A program made the translations under genes and the position numbers. Shown one piece after another: positions 1 to 9,428 of a DNA stretch of 9,768 nt; within the stretch, counting starts at the first letter, position 1; each line of letters begins with the position of its first letter. Source of the stretch: a virus. Its lineage: Duplodnaviria; Heunggongvirae; Uroviricota; Caudoviricetes. The stretch lies in the IMG/VR virus record IMGVR_UViG_2728369554_000006. One strand, written 5' to 3'. The notes beneath the pieces were generated by a model. It did no database searches. It worked only from the letters and a program-made list of their open reading frames with translations, and was not told the origin of the DNA.

Positions 1-3000
1 ATCACGTCTGCAAACATCGACCGTCTGCGCTTTACCTTCGGTGTGCAGGCACTGGTGGAAACCACCTCAAAGGGGGACAGGAATCCGTCGGAAGTCCGTC
101 TGCTGGTTCAGATACAGCGTAATGGTGGCTGGGTGACGGAAAAAGACATCACCATTAAGGGCAAAACCACCTCGCAGTATCTGGCCTCGGTGGTGGTGGG
201 TAACCTGCCGCCGCGCCCGTTTAATATCCGGATGCGCAGAATGACGCCGGACAGCACTACAGACCAGCTGCAGAACAAAACGCTCTGGTCGTCATACACC
301 GAAATCATCGATGTGAAACAGGGCTACCCGAACACGGCACTGGTCGGTGTACAGGTGGACTCGGAGCAGTTCGGCAGCCAGCAGGTGAGTCGTAATTATC
401 ATCTTCGCGGGCGCATTCTGCAGGTGCCGTCGAACTATAACCCGCAGACGCGGCAATACAGCGGTATCTGGGACGGAACGTTAAAACCGGCATACAGCAA
501 CAACATGGCCTGGTGTCTGTGGGATATGCTGACCCATCCGCGCTACGGCATGGGGAAACGTCTTGGTGCGGCGGATGTGGATAAATGGGCGCTGTATGTC
601 ATCGGCCAGTACTGCGACCAGTCAGTGCCGGACGGCTTTGGCGGCACGGAGCCGCGCATCACCTGTAATGCGTACCTGACCACACAGCGTAAGGCGTGGG
701 ATGTGCTCAGCGATTTCTGCTCGGCGATGCGCTGTATGCCGGTATGGAACGGGCAGACGCTGACGTTCGTGCAGGACCGACCGTCGGATAAGGCGTGGAC
801 CTATAACCGCAGTAATGTGGTGATGCCGGATGATGGCGCGCCGTTCCGCTACAGCTTCAGCGCCCTGAAGGANNNNNNNNNNCAGTATCCGGATGCGCAG
901 GATGACGCCGGACAGCACCACAGACCAGCTGCAGAACAAAACGCTCTGGTCGTCATACACCGAAATCATCGATGTGAAACAGTGCTACCCGAACACGGCA
1001 CTGGTTGGCGTACAGGTGGATTCGGAGCAGTTCGGCAGCCAGCAGGTGAGCCGTAATTATCATCTTCGCGGGCGCATTCTGCAGGTGCCGTCGAACTATA
1101 ACCCGCAGACGCGGCAATACAGCGGTATCTGGGACGGAACGTTAAAACCGGCATACAGCAACAACATGGCCTGGTGTCTGTGGGATATGCTGACCCACCC
1201 GCGCTACGGCATGGGGAAACGTCTTGGTGCGGCAGATGTGGATAAATGGGCGCTGTATGTCATCGGCCAGTACTGCGACCAGTCAGTGCCGGACGGTTTT
1301 GGCGGCACGGAGCCGCGCATCACCTGTAATGCCTACCTGACCACGCAGCGTAAGGCGTGGGATGTGCTCAGTGATTTCTGCTCGGCGATGCGCTGTATGC
1401 CGGTATGGAACGGGCAGACGCTGACGTTCGTGCAGGACCGGCCGTCGGATAAGGTGTGGACCTATAACCGCAGTAATGTGGTGATGCCGGATGATGGCGC
1501 GCCGTTCCGCTACAGTTTCAGCGCCCTGAAGGACCGCCATAATGCCGTTGAGGTGAACTGGATTGACCCGGATAACGGCTGGGAAACGGCAACAGAGCTT
1601 GTGGAGGACACGCAGGCCATTGCCCGTTACGGTCGTAATGTCACGAAGATGGATGCCTTTGGCTGTACCAGTCGGGGGCAGGCGCACCGCGCCGGGCTGT
1701 GGCTGATTAAAACAGAACTGCTGGAAACGCAGACCGTGGACTTCAGCGTGGGTGCCGAAGGGCTTCGCCATGTACCGGGCGATGTCATTGAAATCTGCGA
1801 TGATGACTATGCCGGTATCAGCACCGGTGGTCGTGTGCTGGCGGTGAACAGCCAGACCCGGACGNNNNNNNNNNTACGAAGATGGATGCCTTTGGCTGTA
1901 CCAGCCGGGGGCAGGCACACCGCGCCGGGCTGTGGCTGATTAAAACAGAACTGCTGGAAACGCAGACCGTGGATTTCAGCGTCGGCGCAGAAGGGCTTCG
2001 CCATGTACCGGGCGATGTTATTGAAATCTGCGATGATGACTATGCCGGTATCAGCACCGGTGGTCGTGTGCTGGCGGTGAACAGCCAGACCCGGACGCTG
2101 ACGCTCGACCGTGAAATCACGCTGCCATCCTCCGGTACCACGCTGATAAGCCTGGTTGACGGAAGTGGCAATCCGGTCAGCGTGGAGGTTCAGTCCGTCA
2201 CCGACGGCGTGAAGGTAAAAGTGAGCCGTGTTCCTGACGGTGTTGCTGAATACAGCGTATGGGGGCTGAAGCTGCCGACGCTGCGCCAGCGACTGTTCCG
2301 CTGCGTGAGTATCCGTGAGAACGACGACGGCACGTATGCCATCACCGCCGTGCAGCATGTGCCGGAAAAAGAGGCCATCGTGGATAACGGGGCGCACTTT
2401 GACGGCGAACAGAGTGGCACGGTGAACGGTGTCACGCCGCCAGCGGTGCAGCACCTGACTGCCGAAGTCACTGCAGACAGCGGGGAGTATCAGGTGCTGG
2501 CTCGATGGGACACACCGAAGGTGGTGAAGGGCGTGAGCTTCCTGCTCCGTCTGACCGTAACAGCGGACGACGGCAGTGAGCGGCTGGTCAGCACGGCCCG
2601 GACGACGGAAACCACATACCGCTTCACGCAACTGGCGCTGGGGAACTACAGGCTGACAGTCCGGGCGGTAAATGCGTGGGGGCAGCAGGGCGATCCGGCG
2701 TCGGTATCGTTCCGGATTGCCGCACCGGCANNNNNNNNNNCCGCAGTGTGAACACCGTTGGCAAATCGGCATTTGTGGAGGCTGTTGGCCAGCCGAGTGA
2801 TGATGCATCCGGCTATCTGAATTTTTTCAAAGGAGAGATAGGGAAAACCCATCTGGCTCAGGAGTTGTGGACGCAGATTGATAACGGTCAGCTTGCGCCT
2901 GACCTGGCTGAAATCAGGACGTCCATTACGGGTGTCAGCAATGAAATCACGCAGACCGTCAATAAGAAACTGGAAGACCAGAGTGCAGCGATCCAGCAGA

Positions 3001-3854
3001 TACAGAAGGTTCAGGTTGATACAAATAATAACCTGAACAGCATGTGGGCTGTGAAGCTGCAGCAGATGCAGGACGGACGCCTTTATATCGCGGGTATTGG
3101 TGCCGGTATTGAAAACACCCCTGACGGCATGCAGAGTCAGGTGCTGCTGGCGGCAGACAGGATTGCGATGATTAATCCTGCGAATGGCAACACAAAGCCG
3201 ATGTTTGTTGGGCAGGGCGATCAGATATACATGAATGAAGTGTTCCTGAAATATCTGACGGCTCCCACCATTACCAGCGGCGGTAATCCTCCGGCCTTTT
3301 CCCTGACACCGGACGGGCGGCTGACGGCGAAAAATGCCGATATCAGCGGTAACGTGAACGCGAACTCCGGGACGCTCAACAACGTCACGATTAACGAGAA
3401 CTGTCGGGTTCTGGGAAAACTGTCCGCCAACCAGATTGAAGGCGATCTCGTTAAAACAGTGGGCAAAGCTTTCCCCCGGGACTCCCGTGCACCGGAGCGG
3501 TGGCCATCAGGAACCATTACCGTCAGGGTTTATGACGATCAGCCGTTTGACCGGCAAATTGTTATCCCAGCGGTGGCATTCAGTGGCGCTAAACATGAGC
3601 AAGATCATACTGATATCTACTCCTCATGCCGTCTGATAGTACGAAAAAACGGTGCTGAAATTTATAACCGAACGGCTCTGGATAATACGCTGATATATAC
3701 GGGTGTTATTGATATGCCTGCAGGCAGTGGTGTAATGACACTGGAATTTTCTGTATCGGCATGGCTGGTAAATGGCTGGTATCCCACAGCAAGTATCAGC
3801 GATTTGCTGGTTGTGGTGATGAAGAAAGCCACTGCAGGCATCACGATTAGCTGA
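1..3854 (+). CDS. J: Host-specificity / tail-tip protein J (lambda J-like), 5'-partial. Coding frame is broken by 10-N scaffold gaps at 873-882, 1865-1874 and 2731-2740. Coding segments are about 1-872, 884-1864, 1876-2730 and 2742-3854, with stop TGA at 3852-3854.
   Basis: Frame 1 from base 1 translates [44 protein letters not shown]..., which matches the lambda J protein as I remember it. Later segments continue the J sequence (…[33 protein letters not shown]…, …[16 protein letters not shown]…, …[21 protein letters not shown]…). The last ~150 aa diverge from lambda J. High-GC long ORF with antisense ORFs that look spurious. Confidence 0.9.
873..882. other. Assembly gap (10 N). Sequence after the gap re-starts about 660 bp back in J, so 883-1533 is a near-identical re-copy of 222-872.
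   Basis: Run of exactly 10 n; direct comparison of flanking sequence shows overlap with scattered single-base differences. Confidence 0.9.
1865..1874. other. Assembly gap (10 N). 1876-2097 re-copies 1643-1864 with a few mismatches.
   Basis: Run of exactly 10 n; flanking sequence is duplicated with single-base differences (for example gtcggggg/gccggggg, gtgggtgcc/gtcggcgca). Confidence 0.9.
2731..2740. other. Assembly gap (10 N) that hides roughly 75 codons of J, judged against remembered lambda J.
   Basis: The protein jumps from …[10 protein letters not shown] to RSVNTVGKS…; in lambda J these are separated by about 75 residues. Confidence 0.7.
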
Positions 3855-3872
3855 ATTTTATAACCCAGATAC

Positions 3873-3900
3873 GGGCGCCAGAAATGGCGCCTTTTTTATT
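3873..3900 (+). terminator. Rho-independent terminator downstream of J
   Basis: GGCGCC (3874-3879), loop agaaat, GGCGCC (3886-3891), followed immediately by TTTTTTATTT, 20 bp after the J stop codon. Confidence 0.65.
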
Positions 3901-3912
3901 TGTGGAGTGAAT

Positions 3913-5955
3913 ATGGCAGTACAGATTTCAGGTGTGCTGAAAGATGGTGCGGGAAAACCAATACAGAACTGCACTATTCAACTGAAGGCAAAGCGTAACA
4001 GCACCNNNNNNNNNNNNNNNNNNNNNNNNNNNNNNNNNNNNNNNNNNNNNNNNNNNNNNNNNNNNNNNNNNNNNNNNNNNNNNNNNNNNNNNNNNNNNNN
4101 NNNNNNNNNNNNNNNNNNNNNNNNNNNNNNNNNNNNNNNNNNNNNNNNNNNNNNNNNNNNNNNNNNCGCCATGACGGAAGATGATGTCATGCCGGAGGCA
4201 CTGCGCCGTTTTGAGCTGATGGTGAATGAAGTGGCACGTCATGCCGGAGCATCATCACAGAGCGCAGCGGCAGCAAAGAAATCCGAAACTGCAGCGGCAT
4301 CATCGAAGAACGCGGCGAAAACCTCAGAAACGAATGCAGCTAACAGCGCACAGGCGGCAGCGGCCTCGCAGACTGCATCGGCAAACTCCGCGACAGCAGC
4401 CAAAAAATCAGAAACCAGCGCGAAAAATAGCGAGACAGCCACAAAGGCCAGCGAAAAAAACGCAAAATCCAGCCAGACGGCAGCGAAAACCAGTGAGACG
4501 AATGCCAAAGACAGTGAAGCCAACGCAAAGGTGAGCGAAACAGCGGCGGCGAACTCGGCGAAAGCATCGGCAGCAAGCCAGACGGCAGCAAAAGCAAGTG
4601 AAGATGCTGCCAGAGAATACGCAAACCAGACAGCAGAGCCGTACAGATATGTTTTACAGCCGCTGCCGGATGTGTGGATACCCTTTAATGATTCGCTGGA
4701 TATGATTACGGGCTATTCTCCGGGTTATAAAAAAGTGAAGATTGGTGATAATGTGGTTCAGGTTGCCAGTGATAAACAGGTTAATTTCAGTCGCGCATCA
4801 ACGGCAACATATATCAACAAATCTGGCGAACTGAAAACGGCGGAAATTAATGAGCCGCGATTTGAGTGTGATGGCCTGCTTATTGAGGGACAAAGAACGA
4901 ACTACATGCTCAATTCGGAAAGTCCAGCCAGCTGGGGGAAGTCATCAAACATGGATGTGCCCGAAACCGGGACGGATAGTTTTGGTTTTACTTATGGAAA
5001 GTTTGTCTGCAACGATTCTCTGGTTGGGCAAACTTCGGCTATTAATATGGCATCAATTGCTGCAACAAAGTCAGTTGATGTCTCAGGCGATAACAAGTAC
5101 GTGACAACCTCATGCCGTTTTAAAACAGAACGACAGGTAAGGTTACGTATACGGTTTGATAAGTATGATGGTAGTGCAACAACTTTTCTTGGCGATGCGT
5201 ACATTGATACGCAAACGCTTGAAATTAATATGACAGGTGGTGCTGCCGGCAGAATTACGGCACGAGTCAGGAAGGATAAGACCACGGGCTGGATTTTTGC
5301 AGAGGCAACGATTCAGGCAATTGATGGTGAGTTAAAAATAGGCTCTCAGATACAGTATTCTCCTGAGCAGGGTGGGGCAACAGTATCTGGTGACTATATT
5401 TATCTTGCCACCCCACAAGTAGAGAATGGGCCGTGTGTATCATCATTTATTATTTCAGGAGGCAGCGCAACGACAAGAGCCAGTGATTTGGTTAGTATCC
5501 CCACCAGAAATAATCTTTATAAGTTACCATTTACTTTTTTACTTGAGATTCATAAAAACTGGGATATTGCACCAAACGCCGCACCCCGCGTGTGGGATAT
5601 AGCAGCAGCCAATACCGGGCAATCAGCAATTGCAGCAATCAACAGAGGTAGTGGTAAGTTATATATGAGTCTGTCAAACCCTTCAGGCTCGTATGTTAAT
5701 AGCGCAGCGACAGATGTATTTGCAGAGAAAACCACATTTGGATGTATTGCAAAAGCTGATGGTCACTTTCATGTGGTGACAAATGGTAAAGCGGTTAATG
5801 AAGTTTATTGTGAATATAATGGCGTGACCGCTGATAAAAATATCCGATTTGGAGGGCAGACGAATACTGGAGAACGACATCTGTTTGGCCATATTCGCAA
5901 TTTCCGCATATGGCATAAAGAATTAAATGACAGGCAATTAAAAGAGGTCGTATGA
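3913..5955 (+). CDS. stf: Side tail fibre protein (lambda Stf-like N-terminus, Ser/Ala/Thr repeat shaft, C-terminal LamG/concanavalin-like receptor-binding domain). N-terminal region is partly masked by Ns.
   Basis: ATG at 3913 is preceded by GGAG (3903-3906). N-terminus MAVQISGVLKDGAGKPIQNCTIQLKAKRNST and …AMTEDDVMPEALRRFELMVNEVAR resemble the lambda/O157 Stf N-terminus. The C-terminus …LFGHIRNFRIWHKELNDRQLKEV fits the typical ending of a LamG-like jelly-roll domain. The 681-aa ORF is in frame across the N run. Confidence 0.85.
   Translation: MAVQISGVLKDGAGKPIQNCTIQLKAKRNSTXXXXXXXXXXXXXXXXXXXXXXXXXXXXXXXXXXXXXXXXXXXXXXXXXXXXXXAMTEDDVMPEALRRFELMVNEVARHAGASSQSAAAAKKSETAAASSKNAAKTSETNAANSAQAAAASQTASANSATAAKKSETSAKNSETATKASEKNAKSSQTAAKTSETNAKDSEANAKVSETAAANSAKASAASQTAAKASEDAAREYANQTAEPYRYVLQPLPDVWIPFNDSLDMITGYSPGYKKVKIGDNVVQVASDKQVNFSRASTATYINKSGELKTAEINEPRFECDGLLIEGQRTNYMLNSESPASWGKSSNMDVPETGTDSFGFTYGKFVCNDSLVGQTSAINMASIAATKSVDVSGDNKYVTTSCRFKTERQVRLRIRFDKYDGSATTFLGDAYIDTQTLEINMTGGAAGRITARVRKDKTTGWIFAEATIQAIDGELKIGSQIQYSPEQGGATVSGDYIYLATPQVENGPCVSSFIISGGSATTRASDLVSIPTRNNLYKLPFTFLLEIHKNWDIAPNAAPRVWDIAAANTGQSAIAAINRGSGKLYMSLSNPSGSYVNSAATDVFAEKTTFGCIAKADGHFHVVTNGKAVNEVYCEYNGVTADKNIRFGGQTNTGERHLFGHIRNFRIWHKELNDRQLKEVV
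4006..4166. other. 161-nt N run (masked or unknown sequence) inside the stf 5' region; reading frame is preserved across it
   Basis: Contiguous n characters; the ORF continues in the same frame on both sides, suggesting 1:1 masking rather than a sized gap. Confidence 0.8.
4255..4615 (+). repeat. Tandem degenerate repeats encoding a Ser/Ala/Thr/Lys-rich fibre shaft (motifs such as AAKTSETNAK and AKKSETSAKNSETA)
   Basis: Reiterated gcagcgaaaaccagtgagacgaatgc-type units visible in the DNA; translated protein shows periodic K-x-SET-x-A motifs. Confidence 0.75.
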
Positions 5956-6230
5956 AAGATTTAACTTTGAAGTTTCATGACAAACTGCAGTTTAAGGCCT
6001 TCCTGTCATCTCTTGGCTGGGCGGAAGATGAAGACCTCCAGAATAAACTGTTAGTTGATGAAATTGGTTTCACCTACACAGAAACAGGGGTAACAGAAGA
6101 GGGAGAACCTGTCTGTATCCGGAATGATGGTTATTTTGTCAACATTCGCATTCTTGATGACTTGTTTGATGTTTCTGTATTCTCTGATTATGTCGTGGAG
6201 CTGGAAACACCGCTTCGGGAATGGAGCTGA
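5952..6230 (+). CDS. Hypothetical small acidic protein (92 aa), translationally coupled to stf
   Basis: ATG overlaps the stf stop (ATGA at 5952-5955); AGAGG lies 5 nt upstream; D/E-rich translation; ORF directly abuts the next gene. No family recognised. Confidence 0.6.
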   Translation: MKDLTLKFHDKLQFKAFLSSLGWAEDEDLQNKLLVDEIGFTYTETGVTEEGEPVCIRNDGYFVNIRILDDLFDVSVFSDYVVELETPLREWS

Positions 6231-6237
6231 AAGGAGG
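6231..6237 (+). promoter_or_regulatory. Shine-Dalgarno sequence (AAGGAGG) for the 97-aa ORF
   Basis: Perfect AAGGAGG with a 5-nt spacer to the ATG at 6243. Confidence 0.7.
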
Positions 6238-6242
6238 AAATA

Positions 6243-6536
6243 ATGGATATAAGCCCCTTACTTCATGCACTTTGTGCTGTGGCTGCGCAGATACTGGTTG
6301 GTCTTTTTACCGGAAACTGGGCTTACGGAGCGATAGCCGGTTGTACGTTCTTCATTGCGCGTGAACATACCCAGGCAGAATATCGCTGGATTGAAATGTT
6401 CGGGCATGGCAAGCGAATGAATATGCCGTGGTGGGGCGGTTTTGATCCGCGTGCTTGGGATGTGGCAAGCCTGATGGATTTTGCTGTGCCGGTGGTGGCG
6501 TGTCTGCTGGTCTGGCTGTTGGTTAATCGTGGGTGA
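6243..6536 (+). CDS. Hypothetical small integral membrane protein (97 aa, two predicted hydrophobic helices, Trp-rich loop)
   Basis: Strong SD; hydrophobic stretches LLHALCAVAAQILVGLFTGNWAYGAIAGCTFFIA and VASLMDFAVPVVACLLVWLLV separated by a polar loop (RMNMPWWGGFDPRAW). No family recognised. Confidence 0.65.
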   Translation: MDISPLLHALCAVAAQILVGLFTGNWAYGAIAGCTFFIAREHTQAEYRWIEMFGHGKRMNMPWWGGFDPRAWDVASLMDFAVPVVACLLVWLLVNRG

Positions 6537-6546
6537 AAAAAGGTGA

Positions 6547-6675
6547 GCTGTATATGCAACGGAGGAAGAAACCCCGTTGCTGGAAGCCAGGAAAAAGTAT
6601 CGGGTGTTGCTGAACCGGGTTGATACATCAACTGCACCTGATATTGAGTGGCCTGCTGTCCCTGTTATGGAGTAA
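6547..6675 (+). pseudogene. tfaD: 5'-truncated remnant of a tail fibre assembly gene (tfa C-terminal ~40 codons, no start codon)
   Basis: Translation [42 protein letters not shown] matches the conserved Tfa C-terminus (…[16 protein letters not shown]…). An in-frame stop lies immediately upstream (6544-6546) and there is no start codon. The symbol is tentative, taken from the position relative to ybcY in the K-12 DLP12 prophage as I remember it. Confidence 0.7.
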
Positions 6676-6729
6676 TCATTGGGATTATGCCGCAGCACGT
6701 CTTAAGCAAGAACGTGCTGTGGTTGGATG

Positions 6730-7386
6730 CTATTTTTTCCCTGAAGCGGAAAACATTACTACAGTACCTTGAACCTTGGTTTTAACATTCTCGAAATGCT
6801 CTGAGAGTATATGTGTTAAGCCTTCTTCGGAATCTTTTGTGTTTGAAAAGATGCCTTTCTGATTGTAAATGCGCATCAGTTTTTGACCGAAGCTATTGTG
6901 CACAACTCCATCGCCAAGAATTGTGGCTCCGTATAGAGTTCCATCGTCAGTTAAGGCCTGCGCCGCATTGCGTATTACACAGCTTTTTGTAGATATATTT
7001 CCAGGCAGGCAGTGAAGAAGGTAAAACATGGAAATGGAATCAAATTGACCATGTAACGCCGCGGGATAAGGTTCAAAAACATCATGGCTAATTTTATGTT
7101 TAATTTTTGATTCCCCTGCCCTTGTAGATGCCGCGTTCAGGCTAGCTTCGTTCAAATCCATTAAAGATATCAGACTACTCTCAGGTACGTGAGTAAGGTA
7201 AAACCCAGTTCCAACACCAATATCCAGATGGTTGTTACCTAAATGTTCCAGAAAGTGTGGAAGAAGGTGTTCCTTTGTAGGACATCCCCATGCAAGCCGA
7301 TTTGATACACCCAAAACCCACCAGTCATAAAGCTTTAGGGTAAGTGGTGTGTAAATTTTAGCCCCATCATCTGTGTTTTTTTTCAT
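6730..7386 (-). CDS. ybcY: Class I SAM-dependent methyltransferase (ybcY-like), apparently intact. A further in-frame ATG sits at 7396-7398.
   Basis: Motif I LDIGVGTGF, an acidic residue ending the next strand (SLMDLN), and a motif II-like FDSISMFYLLHCLP. GGTGA lies upstream of the MKKNTDDG start. Position and orientation between two tfa remnants match remembered ybcY in DLP12. No DPPY/NPPY motif, so it is probably not a DNA N6/N4 methyltransferase. Confidence 0.7.
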   Translation of the reverse strand: MKKNTDDGAKIYTPLTLKLYDWWVLGVSNRLAWGCPTKEHLLPHFLEHLGNNHLDIGVGTGFYLTHVPESSLISLMDLNEASLNAASTRAGESKIKHKISHDVFEPYPAALHGQFDSISMFYLLHCLPGNISTKSCVIRNAAQALTDDGTLYGATILGDGVVHNSFGQKLMRIYNQKGIFSNTKDSEEGLTHILSEHFENVKTKVQGTVVMFSASGKK

Positions 7387-7454
7387 TAATTTCACCATGT
7401 TATAGTTTTATTTATGAATTAAATCAATTATGGCGATGAATTACAAGGGGTTAA

Positions 7455-7760
7455 ATGCTGCCGCAGCATAGCGATATTGAAATAGCCTGGTATGCTTCGA
7501 TACAGCAGGAGCCGAATGGCTGGAAGACCGTCACCACACAGTTCTACATCCAGGAATTCAGTGAGTATATTGCGCCACTGCAGGATGCTGTAGATCTGGA
7601 AATCGCAACGGAGGAAGAAAGATCGTTGCTGGAGGCATGGAATAAATATCGGGTATTGTTGAATCGTGTTGATACATCAGTAGCTCTGGGTATGAAGCTG
7701 TTTGTAACTCATATTACAGTAACGGCCATTACTATATCGAAGGTGCAAAATGTATATTGA
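7455..7760 (+). pseudogene. tfaX: Truncated or chimeric tail fibre assembly protein fragment (tfaX-like, 101 codons)
   Basis: …[39 protein letters not shown] matches the Tfa C-terminal region, but the ORF then diverges ([14 protein letters not shown]…) and lacks the N-terminal half of a full Tfa of about 190 aa. Confidence 0.6.
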
Positions 7761-7943: not shown

Positions 7944-9428
7944 TTATTGTATTTCTGCTTCAGAATTTCCTGGGCAGTATATATTTTCTATTTTTTGTGG
8001 AGTGATCAGGTGATGTACAACTGCTTTATCTACACATAAATTAACTCCGGTGAGAGCTAATGTATGCCCATCACCATTTATTGTTAGTAACGGGCTGGAA
8101 AATTTCTCTGCCATCTTACGGGCATTAATCCAGGGCGTTGTTGGGTCGTATTTGTGTGCTACAAACAGTAAACCAGAGGGCAGAACAGTATTTTTCAGGC
8201 GAGTTTTGTTCAGGTCGCTATGTATTGGCCATAATTCACAAAAATCAGGTGAATCGGAACGTCCATTGTCAAAGTTAATAGCCGGGAAGGCATTCGCAAG
8301 AGCGTCTTTTCGGGATTTTCGCTCTTCTGGTGTTAATTGCTCATCCCCCTGATCTACACAAAGGATTACCCCCGAAGCATCGCTTGACTCTTCTGAGGCT
8401 ATCGGAGCACTGAGCGCAGTTTCAATTTCATTACTGACAATCCCCTGAGAGAACTGGCGTATGGCAGTTGCAAGGGTTGGCCATGATGAACGCCATAGCA
8501 GAAGGTCTGTTGTTAATGATATGAGTTCATCTGAAGATATATTTTCTCCCTTACTGTCTAATAAAGGTTTGTGATGTAATTTTGATAATAGCTCATGGAA
8601 CTGAGTTATTGCCTTATCTCTGTCTGAAGAAAGCGGGCAACTTTTTGTACGCGCACACCAGGATGCAAAGCGATCAAACGTTTCCTGATAACTCTGTGCC
8701 TGTTTGAGTTGCCATGTGAAGTTGTCCTCCAGGTCATCGATATCGACGACTCCATCAAGAACGATAGATCTTACGTTGTAGGGAAAACGTTCTGCATATA
8801 AGGCTGCAATTTGAGTTCCATACGAATACGCCACGGCTGTCAGTTGTTTATCCCCCAAGGCTTGCCTAATACGATCAATATCGTATACAGCCTCGTTAGA
8901 GCCGATATGGCGAATGACTTCGGCTCCGGTATTATGGATACAGGCATTAATTTTATTTAATACTTGTTGCTTTTCGGTTATGTTTTCCTGAGTCTCTGTA
9001 TCTGATTGCCGGCAGTTTATTGTCGGAGTGGACTGTCCGACGCCTCGAGGATCAAATCCAATAATATCCCATGACTCACGAAGATTTGTGACTGGCCAGT
9101 CAAAGTTAATATAAGGATTTATGCCTGGTAACCCGGGACCACCACTTATTATCAGGATACTTCCTTTATGCTTGCTTTTTGCCGGCAATTTTGTCAACGC
9201 TAGTTTGACTTGTGATTTTTTTTCATAAGAAGCATCTCCGCCTGTGTCTGTATATTTTAATGGAACAGACAAATAACCACATAGTAAGTCAGGAGACGGT
9301 TTTTCCTCACCAAACCAGTGGTTGAATTGACTGGCCATACAGGATTGCCACTGTATCTGCTGGGCAGATACGGTTACTGGTAGAAGTAACGTTAAAACAA
9401 CTTTGAAATGAGTAATTATTTTTCGCAT
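7944..9428 (-). CDS. Secreted alpha/beta-hydrolase, S33 (prolyl/tripeptidyl aminopeptidase-like) serine peptidase family, with N-terminal Sec signal peptide
   Basis: 494-aa ORF. N-terminus MRKIITHFKVVLTLLLPVTVSAQQ is signal-peptide-like. GFDPRGVGQS motif, nucleophile elbow AYSYGT (G-x-S-x-G-like) and C-terminal NGDGHTLAL (candidate catalytic His) are typical of the alpha/beta-hydrolase S33/TAP family. Markedly AT-rich relative to J. Confidence 0.8.
   Translation of the reverse strand: MRKIITHFKVVLTLLLPVTVSAQQIQWQSCMASQFNHWFGEEKPSPDLLCGYLSVPLKYTDTGGDASYEKKSQVKLALTKLPAKSKHKGSILIISGGPGLPGINPYINFDWPVTNLRESWDIIGFDPRGVGQSTPTINCRQSDTETQENITEKQQVLNKINACIHNTGAEVIRHIGSNEAVYDIDRIRQALGDKQLTAVAYSYGTQIAALYAERFPYNVRSIVLDGVVDIDDLEDNFTWQLKQAQSYQETFDRFASWCARTKSCPLSSDRDKAITQFHELLSKLHHKPLLDSKGENISSDELISLTTDLLLWRSSWPTLATAIRQFSQGIVSNEIETALSAPIASEESSDASGVILCVDQGDEQLTPEERKSRKDALANAFPAINFDNGRSDSPDFCELWPIHSDLNKTRLKNTVLPSGLLFVAHKYDPTTPWINARKMAEKFSSPLLTINGDGHTLALTGVNLCVDKAVVHHLITPQKIENIYCPGNSEAEIQ

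Follow-up and report, generated by a model that had tools for sequence, protein, structure and literature searches.

We analysed a 9,768-nt stretch of DNA (IMG/VR record IMGVR_UViG_2728369554_000006; hereafter, the window), which represents the tail end of an Escherichia coli lambdoid prophage. The side tail fibre gene stf of this prophage is followed by two short open reading frames (ORFs) coding for proteins of 92 and 97 residues, referred to here as ORF92 and ORF97. We consider them to be two intact genes of the late operon end with separate histories and likely separate jobs: ORF92 would serve as an assembly or accessory partner of the fibre, and ORF97 as a moron-type membrane protein. The probability of this reading can be roughly estimated as 0.55. 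It builds on the existence and conservation of the two genes, the purifying selection acting on them, their distributions, gene order and mosaic boundaries, all of which were observed directly.

stf (3907-5955, plus strand) encodes a phage_tail_N attachment domain (Pfam, E 3e-21), an alanine-rich coiled coil and, at the C-terminus, some 430 residues that form the receptor-binding region. Its product matches phrog_1419 (E 6e-298), and a gap of 161 N (4006-4166) lies inside the gene. stf ends in ...GTCGTATGA, so that its stop codon overlaps the ORF92 start codon at 5952 in an ATGA sequence. ORF92 (5952-6230, plus strand) codes for an acidic alpha/beta protein (isoelectric point 4.17, 20 Asp and Glu versus 8 Lys and Arg residues), predicted to be cytoplasmic. 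ORF97 (6243-6536, plus strand) begins 12 nt after the ORF92 stop codon ending at 6230. A Shine-Dalgarno sequence AAGGAGG, read directly in the sequence, is located at 6231-6237 of the same strand, 5 nt ahead of the ORF97 ATG. The ORF97 product is a hydrophobic predicted integral membrane protein (grand average of hydropathy 0.53). The first-pass annotation, made from the sequence alone, had already pointed out the ATGA overlap, the acidic 92-residue ORF, the 12-bp gap and the Shine-Dalgarno sequence, and the ORF list together with the sequence confirm all four.

Residues 1-91 of ORF92 align with positions 1-91 of the 92-position phrog_1361 profile (E 3e-42), and residues 1-96 of ORF97 with positions 1-96 of the 97-position phrog_1443 profile (E 2e-58). 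Both genes are conserved and under purifying selection, with a median ratio of non-synonymous to synonymous substitution rates of 0.31 for ORF92 and 0.16 for ORF97. AlphaFold models of the two proteins are confident (mean predicted local distance difference test scores of 89.7 and 91.9, respectively). Since the PHROG matches are full-length, selection is purifying and the models are confident, ORF92 and ORF97 are real genes. A 146-residue antisense ORF at 6258-6698, also considered as a gene candidate, is unsupported and overlaps the conserved ORF97 and the remnant of the tail fibre assembly gene tfa.

Both proteins had been described as unrecognised, which did not hold: they are already catalogued as hypothetical in phrog_1361 and phrog_1443, with function unassigned in both families. 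A region of about 1 kb is 99% identical at the DNA level to phage 21 (GenBank OL657228, genes CPT_21_22, CPT_21_23, and CPT_21_24). There, the trio is annotated as side tail fiber, hypothetical protein and putative membrane protein. ORF92 corresponds to CPT_21_23 (97% protein identity) and ORF97 to CPT_21_24 (100%), with the same order and overlaps as in the window. Phages ev207, Perceval, mEp460 and several lambda-like isolates are equally close to this region. Of 5426 complete E. coli genomes, 1131 contain close DNA copies of ORF92 and 1903 contain those of ORF97, the latter at 3932 places. What had been taken for a local novelty is the native arrangement of phage 21, found in about one fifth of complete E. 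coli genomes. In UniRef, the exact ORF97 sequence carries the name “Ybl63”, and ORF92 is listed as “prophage protein”. Pfam, NCBIfam and PADLOC provided an informative match for neither of them, and comparison of their sequence profiles with PDB chains gave nothing better than E 0.3. All Foldseek matches among viral models are uncharacterised proteins.

To judge by the sequence comparisons, the two-gene “module” proposed earlier is a juxtaposition of independent genes, because each of them occurs without the other and recombination breakpoints fall between them. The genomic context was evaluated in a set of 80 IMG/VR loci carrying an ORF92 homologue. ORF92 occurs without ORF97 in T1-like and T5-like phages, in Dhillonvirus and Seuratvirus (tblastn with ORF97 found no match in the T1-like, T5-like or Dhillonvirus groups), as well as in a second type of E. 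coli prophage. Conversely, ORF97 occurs without ORF92 after tailspike genes, after tfa, after other fibres, or as a chromosomal orphan. A second fibre gene separates the two in 26 of the 80 loci. E. coli ORF97 loci located behind a fibre of the window type contain ORF92 in between in 41 cases out of 80 and a short fibre in between in 36 out of 80. ORF97 remains 96-100% identical where the C-terminal domain of Stf drops to 43-72% and ORF92 to 54-90%. In the lambda-like isolate Lambda_2E9, with recombination boundaries between the two genes, identities to the window are 43% for the Stf C-terminal domain, 90% for ORF92 and 100% for ORF97.

These distributions make it very improbable that the cytoplasmic ORF92 and the membrane ORF97 products form one functional pair maturing or delivering this fibre, even though 46 of the 80 loci show the gene order stf, ORF92, ORF97, the spacing between the two genes is tight, there is no promoter-like site between them, and the trio of a fibre, an ORF92-like gene and ORF97 appears again in Comamonas kerstersii. 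In the latter, a 95-residue protein assigned to phrog_18574 is encoded between a phrog_5939 fibre gene and the ORF97 homologue. It is a probable distant relative of ORF92: both match phrog_18574, with a weak direct hhalign score (E 0.012). A 72-residue gene located 5' of the Comamonas testosteroni ORF97 homologue was rejected as an ORF92 relative, as hhalign gave only E 0.12. Of the two readings offered earlier for the pair, a fibre accessory function fits ORF92 and a moron-like membrane protein fits ORF97.

ORF92 appears to be a dedicated partner of one family of lateral and side fibres that have the roughly 430-residue C-terminal region in common. In all 80 IMG/VR loci, this fibre domain is encoded upstream of ORF92, directly abutting it in 78. 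The co-occurrence with this type of stf alleles, suggested as a check for both genes, is complete for ORF92 but does not extend to ORF97, which also follows unrelated receptor-binding genes. tblastn located ORF92 in 147 phage records, each time adjoining a tail fibre gene; the fibre C-terminal domain itself is present in 228. Virulent phages carrying ORF92 include T1-like (tunus), T5-like (IrisVonRoten), Dhillonvirus (KarlBarth) and Seuratvirus representatives. In the second E. coli prophage type, an ORF92 homologue (54% identical) is located between head genes and the tail tube gene, 3' of a gene whose product has 671-704 residues. Over its last 435 residues, this product shares 54% identity with phage 21 Stf, whereas its N-terminus shows no relationship to it; ORF97 is not found near ORF92 there. 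These loci (L010-L012, approximately 3887-7390) have the order fibre, ORF92 homologue, short Peptidase_S74 fibre, and their head-proximal position is unusual for a fibre locus.

The fibre tip had been described as LamG-type. The Pfam Laminin_G_3 match (E 3e-5) scores 24.5 bits against the curated cut-off of 27.6 and is therefore below threshold, and the region is called LamG-like here; a match to the gene transfer agent head-spike-fibre domain (NCBIfam GTA_spike_fiber, 55.7 bits) is above cut-off. The C-terminal region is 98% identical to that of phage 21 Stf. Fibres of this family (phrog_1419/5939, GTA-spike/LamG-like) have neither a Caudo_TAP partner nor a C-terminal Peptidase_S74 domain, and no tfa partner for this fibre type was found in any phage group examined. 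Second fibres, which often follow ORF92, bear a Peptidase_S74 chaperone domain of their own. Since the pairing persists across phage groups, the unit moving between phages is the fibre 3' region together with ORF92. Cassettes of stf and tfa are moved between phages in a similar manner.

In five lambda-like isolates (4C10, 4A7, 1W, 3W, and D2), the 3' end of stf is broken just before ORF92 by an insertion element that carries three genes annotated as “mobile element protein” (3554-5970 in the Lambda_4C10 locus L002 and 2442-4564 in the phage D2 locus L005). ORF92 and ORF97 are intact in these isolates and 100% identical to those of the window.

The most probable role of ORF92 is that of an assembly or accessory protein specific to this fibre. 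Its translation is coupled to that of the fibre gene, and it may act in the cytoplasm as an assembly or folding factor of the fibre, performing the job of Tfa with no kinship to it; alternatively, it may remain on the fibre as a small accessory subunit. A Tfa-like assembly role can be considered the simplest reading, because ORF92 is a constant companion of a fibre which lacks both a Caudo_TAP partner and a Peptidase_S74 domain. ORF92 is placed like a tfa-type gene and is co-inherited with the fibre C-terminal region (in all 80 loci and at least five phage groups), while ORF97 is not. Like ORF92, the genes of the Caudo_TAP family (PF02413; Tfa, Mu gpU, P2 gpG) are located directly 3' of a fibre gene, are co-translated with it and travel with the fibre 3' end. 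ORF92 differs from them in being half the size, in having no sequence match to the family and in not diverging in parallel with the variable fibre part. Neither ORF92 nor ORF97 matched Caudo_TAP in Pfam, PHROGs or NCBIfam, while the tfaX-like fragment at 7455-7760, which served as a positive control, did (E 9e-18). No Tfa structure is present among the ORF92 fold matches, nor is anything else informative. The absence of kinship to Tfa/Caudo_TAP or to a family of known function, as presumed earlier, was thus borne out by sequence, profile and fold searches.

Divergence of ORF92 in step with the receptor-binding domain was ruled out by discordant identities. In addition to Lambda_2E9 (43% for the domain, 90% for ORF92), locus L017 shows the opposite relation, with 72% identity to the window for the Stf C-terminal domain and 54% for ORF92. 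As ORF92 does not track the whole fibre domain, its target, if it is fibre-binding, must be a conserved part of the fibre. The C-terminus of Stf is conserved (...RHLFGHxRNxRxWHKxLxDxQL...).

Another possible, although rather doubtful, role for ORF92 is that of a small structural adaptor docking a short second fibre on the LamG-like one, to give a branched fibre; in the phage 21 type it would be a leftover. In virulent phages and in about one third of the prophage loci ORF92 is directly followed by a gene for a Peptidase_S74 fibre protein, several of these second fibres have a similar N-terminus (MATSTVIPDDIKTLK...), and the BASEL annotation of the IrisVonRoten ORF92 homologue (bas32_0023) is “tail fiber protein”. 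A precedent is provided by the T5-like phage DT57C, where branching of the lateral fibres is established (PMC4728585; PMC10713586): as in IrisVonRoten (fibre, ORF92 homologue, second fibre), DT57C has two successive fibre genes, the second with Peptidase_S74. LtfA ends in Peptidase_S74 as well, and a small gene between ltfA and ltfB is not described; the DT57C branch is built without any such small protein. Unlike DT57C, the window has no second fibre gene; the same is true for phage 21 and for 46 of the 80 loci in total, where ORF92 is nevertheless intact, overlaps stf and is constrained. The BASEL and DT57C papers treat the lateral fibre loci with no mention of a 92-residue gene. We retain the assembly or accessory role as the preferred one for ORF92.

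If ORF92 is indeed an obligatory assembly partner, it must travel with the fibre in swaps of receptor-binding modules. Besides lambdoid prophages, fibres with this C-terminal domain are found in T1-like, T5-like, Dhillonvirus, and Seuratvirus phages, on which host-range studies and phage engineering draw.

The common feature of the phage loci with ORF97 is the upstream gene, mostly a receptor-binding gene or its chaperone. Homologues outside the phage 21 type are 54-79% identical to ORF97 where measured. In JEP4, the homologue is located directly 3' of a P22-like tailspike gene with an ATGA overlap and is followed by int. In the P22-like phage Gally, it is also 3' of the tailspike gene, beyond a terminator-like hairpin and a promoter-like site. 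Other locations include the gap between tfa and the sheath gene in the P2-like tail module of the myovirus phiHAP-1, the position 3' of phrog_2837 fibres in Pantoea, of a gene for a 720-residue tail fibre or tailspike protein in Leclercia and of a 492-residue fibre (phrog_5939) in Chelativorans. A partial copy is found 3' of the tailspike gene in HC6. In some of the phages the start of ORF97 overlaps the stop codon of the upstream gene. Single chromosomal genes of the ORF97 family exist as well; their neighbours are conserved in Aeromonas and Leclercia and vary in sphingomonads. Since the upstream genes are unrelated, chromosomal orphans exist and identity stays at 96-100% across fibre exchanges, ORF97 is specific to no receptor-binding protein.

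Several of these loci deserve a closer description. The Gally hairpin (L168, 3789-3855) has a GC-rich 9-bp stem with a T-run and is located right after the tailspike gene. The promoter-like site (TTAAGA, 18 nt, TAGAAT) lies about 145 nt 5' of the ORF97 homologue, giving a moron-like layout unlike the JEP4 overlap; the count of such sites in Gally is no higher than in shuffled sequence. No promoter-like or terminator-like consensus sites were found either within 5600-7000 of the window or in phage 21. In Comamonas nitrativorans (L044, 4785-6691), the ORF97 homologue is located between a gene for a 383-residue protein and the avd gene of a diversity-generating retroelement (phrog_3206, E 1e-44) and appears to be embedded in the retroelement cassette. 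In Aeromonas rivipollensis (L008, 8001-11645), the homologue adjoins, in convergent orientation, a RIO1-type kinase gene and two lipid A acyltransferase genes, and in at least three Aeromonas species a pirin gene is located 5' of it. The Aeromonas neighbourhood provides a weak hint at a link to lipopolysaccharide.

The ORF97 family comprises 577 clusters of homologues, and a profile search retrieved 438 representatives at 50% identity. Among the best 150 of the 438, relatives are 58-146 residues long and all stand-alone, with no fused domains found. The family is present in Enterobacterales, Aeromonas, Halomonas, Comamonas, Acidovorax, sphingomonads, Chelativorans and Desulfovibrio, and identity between the E. 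coli and Comamonas proteins is 60%. Nine residues (H8, R40, E41, Q44, A45, E46, R58, W72, P83) are kept in at least 90% of the family, the conserved core being AREHTQAEYRWI..FG.GKR.NMPWWGGFD. A Pfam scan of 68 diverse relatives returned only scattered matches typical of transmembrane segments.

The product had been described as a two-helix membrane protein. Its hydrophobic, membrane character stands; the AlphaFold model contains three helices, two of which (4-23 and 26-52) form a hairpin, the third one covering residues 74-96. In an antiparallel hairpin turning at 24-25, H8 would face E41. Lys and Arg are concentrated in the loop 40-73, with a family mean of 5.25; the means for the turn joining helices 1 and 2 and for the C-terminal tail are 0.09 and 0.62, respectively. 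The positive-inside rule thus favours a cytoplasmic location of this conserved loop, and the predicted topology has the N-terminus and the loop inside and the C-terminus outside. ORF97 may therefore be viewed as one of a bacterial and phage family of three-helix inner-membrane proteins of about 100 residues, with a conserved polar site (H8, R40-E41..Q44-A45-E46, plus R58, W72 and P83) presumably placed at the membrane interface.

In phages with each of the three tail types, ORF97 seems to be placed directly after the last receptor-binding gene, whatever its kind. We propose that its product acts on a conserved component of the host envelope or inner membrane as an accessory protein of the moron type, the most likely purposes being exclusion of superinfecting phages or alteration of the cell envelope. 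Overall, an accessory envelope protein of the moron type, possibly involved in superinfection exclusion, is the most likely identity of ORF97; we do not think that it is a fibre chaperone. An accessory slot and independence of the neighbouring genes, both expected of a moron, are seen for ORF97 and not for ORF92. Conversion and exclusion genes occupy such slots in well-studied phages: lom in lambda, cor in phi80 and N15, gtrABC in P22, oac in Sf6, and Z/fun in P2. Their positions are those of ORF97: at the end of the lambdoid late operon, after tfa and, in P22-like phages, in the slot that separates the tailspike gene from int. None of these genes is related to ORF97 in sequence. Unlike them, ORF97 is invariant with respect to the receptor-binding protein, is often coupled to structural genes and has chromosomal orthologues outside prophages. 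No ORF97 match was found among the superinfection exclusion and defence families of PADLOC, Pfam and NCBIfam, which excludes membership in these families but not the exclusion function itself. A generic membrane factor placed beside any receptor-binding gene would provide a new handle on superinfection exclusion or envelope remodelling.

A small size and several predicted membrane helices are also compatible with a lysis-related protein, such as a holin, an antiholin or a lysis regulator. An ORF97 homologue is located directly 5' of the endolysin gene in Acidovorax and one gene ahead of it in Pantoea; in Comamonas, it precedes two membrane protein genes, a phrog_3108 gene and an Rz-like spanin gene. 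One of the 68 diverse family members has a weak Phage_holin_8 match (E 0.0036). However, lysis genes of lambdoid and P22-like phages are normally at the far end of the late operon from ORF97, as is the case in lambda, phage 21, and P22. There is no endolysin gene in the window, and the window ORF97 matches no holin family. Its product lacks a charged C-terminal tail (it ends in ...LLVNRG), and conservation across genera is far above that usual for holins. Aeromonas and Leclercia retain it as a lone chromosomal gene, and in phages of non-enteric hosts the shared feature is the upstream receptor-binding gene rather than downstream lysis genes. With this in mind, we regard a role in lysis as hardly likely.

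In sipho-, podo- and myoviruses alike, ORF97 directly follows the last receptor-binding gene, often with a stop/start overlap, and this could instead indicate a general late-infection factor serving receptor-binding proteins as a class, e.g., by altering a surface glycolipid to stop virions from binding the producer cell or its debris. The lack of a promoter-like site of its own in the window and the presence of homologues in some apparently virulent phages agree with this. At the same time, many T1-like and T5-like phages with the same fibre and ORF92 lack ORF97, chromosomal orphans exist, and the Gally homologue is separated from the tailspike gene by a terminator-like hairpin, so such a role is unlikely.

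Several points weigh against the assignment of ORF92 to fibre assembly and of ORF97 to moron-type membrane proteins. Direct functional evidence for either protein is absent from the searchable literature: in the papers accessible to search, including the phage 21 genome announcement, the function of neither is discussed. The fibre domain and ORF92 diverge discordantly, as described above for Lambda_2E9, and a second fibre gene follows ORF92 in most loci that are not of the phage 21 type, where an adaptor role fits equally well. As a moron, ORF97 is atypical, since in the window it has no promoter-like or terminator-like site and in several phages it is tightly or translationally coupled; homologues are also present in a few apparently virulent phages. 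Finally, TMHMM in the phage 21 record predicts two spans with both ends inside, in disagreement with the three-helix reading.

A more far-reaching and tentative proposal, which we consider doubtful as a whole, is that ORF97 represents a Proteobacterial inner-membrane family recruited by sipho-, podo- and myoviruses beside their receptor-binding genes to act on one conserved envelope or inner-membrane step (which could be phage DNA entry or a lipid-linked glycan or lipopolysaccharide pathway) via its interfacial His-Arg-Glu-Gln-Glu site, and that ORF92 founds a family of fibre assembly factors unrelated to Tfa, gp38, and gp57A. In this case ORF97 would be a new, receptor-independent class of superinfection exclusion or envelope conversion factor. 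ORF97 is present in about one third of complete E. coli genomes, often in multiple copies, and is among the most conserved genes at the variable prophage end. Both families are widespread and uncharacterised; phage 21 on E. coli K-12, as well as the BASEL phages, would allow direct tests. Our findings overturn no current view.

The end of the locus preserves a record of its history. A 3' remnant of tfa (6547-6675, plus strand) consists of 42 codons and a stop codon, with no start codon; its translation corresponds to the Tfa C-terminus, and RefSeq labels the stretch “tail fiber assembly protein, incomplete”. The first-pass annotation had recognised this stump, counting 40 codons, and was right that tfa is absent apart from 3' remnants. 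The 76 nt directly after ORF97 are identical to those of phage 21 and include the first 66 nt (about 22 codons) of the remnant. Since these 76 nt are common to phage 21 and the window, one old recombination swapped the stf 3' end and the tfa 5' end for the cassette with the LamG-like fibre. The claim that the two genes displaced tfa can thus be accepted in the historical sense; the junction itself is already present in phage 21, and this fibre type goes without tfa in all groups examined.

The window is a later, DLP12-like variant in which the tfa stump is kept whole, along with a second tfa fragment and a ybcY-like methyltransferase gene. In phage 21, by contrast, the trio is followed by sitABCD: in this phage and its relatives (L001, 6929-10378) these iron/manganese transporter genes, a metabolic cargo, are located right after ORF97 on the opposite strand. 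The ybcY-like S-adenosylmethionine-dependent methyltransferase gene of the window (6730-7398, minus strand) is located between two Tfa C-terminal fragments, the second of which is the tfaX-like fragment at 7455-7760 used above as a control. PhiR49_1 has the same layout as positions 6547-7760 of the window, and we take this part to resemble the right end of DLP12 of E. coli K-12.

The J gene, within positions 1-4200 of the window, is represented by overlapping pieces with 10-N spacers between them (873-882, 1865-1874, and 2731-2740). Direct repeats with 97-98% identity surround the first two spacers (225-524 versus 886-1185 and 1643-1864 versus 1876-2097). The pattern suggests an artefact of scaffolding or assembly, or a mixture of J alleles, rather than biology.

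At the other end of the window, a gene at 7944-9428 (minus strand) encodes a 494-residue TAP-like alpha/beta hydrolase with Abhydrolase_1 and Abhydrolase_4 domains and a hydrophobic N-terminus, a candidate signal peptide. A 494-residue hypothetical protein is encoded at the corresponding position of PhiR49_1, just before ompT. The hydrolase is possibly prophage cargo.

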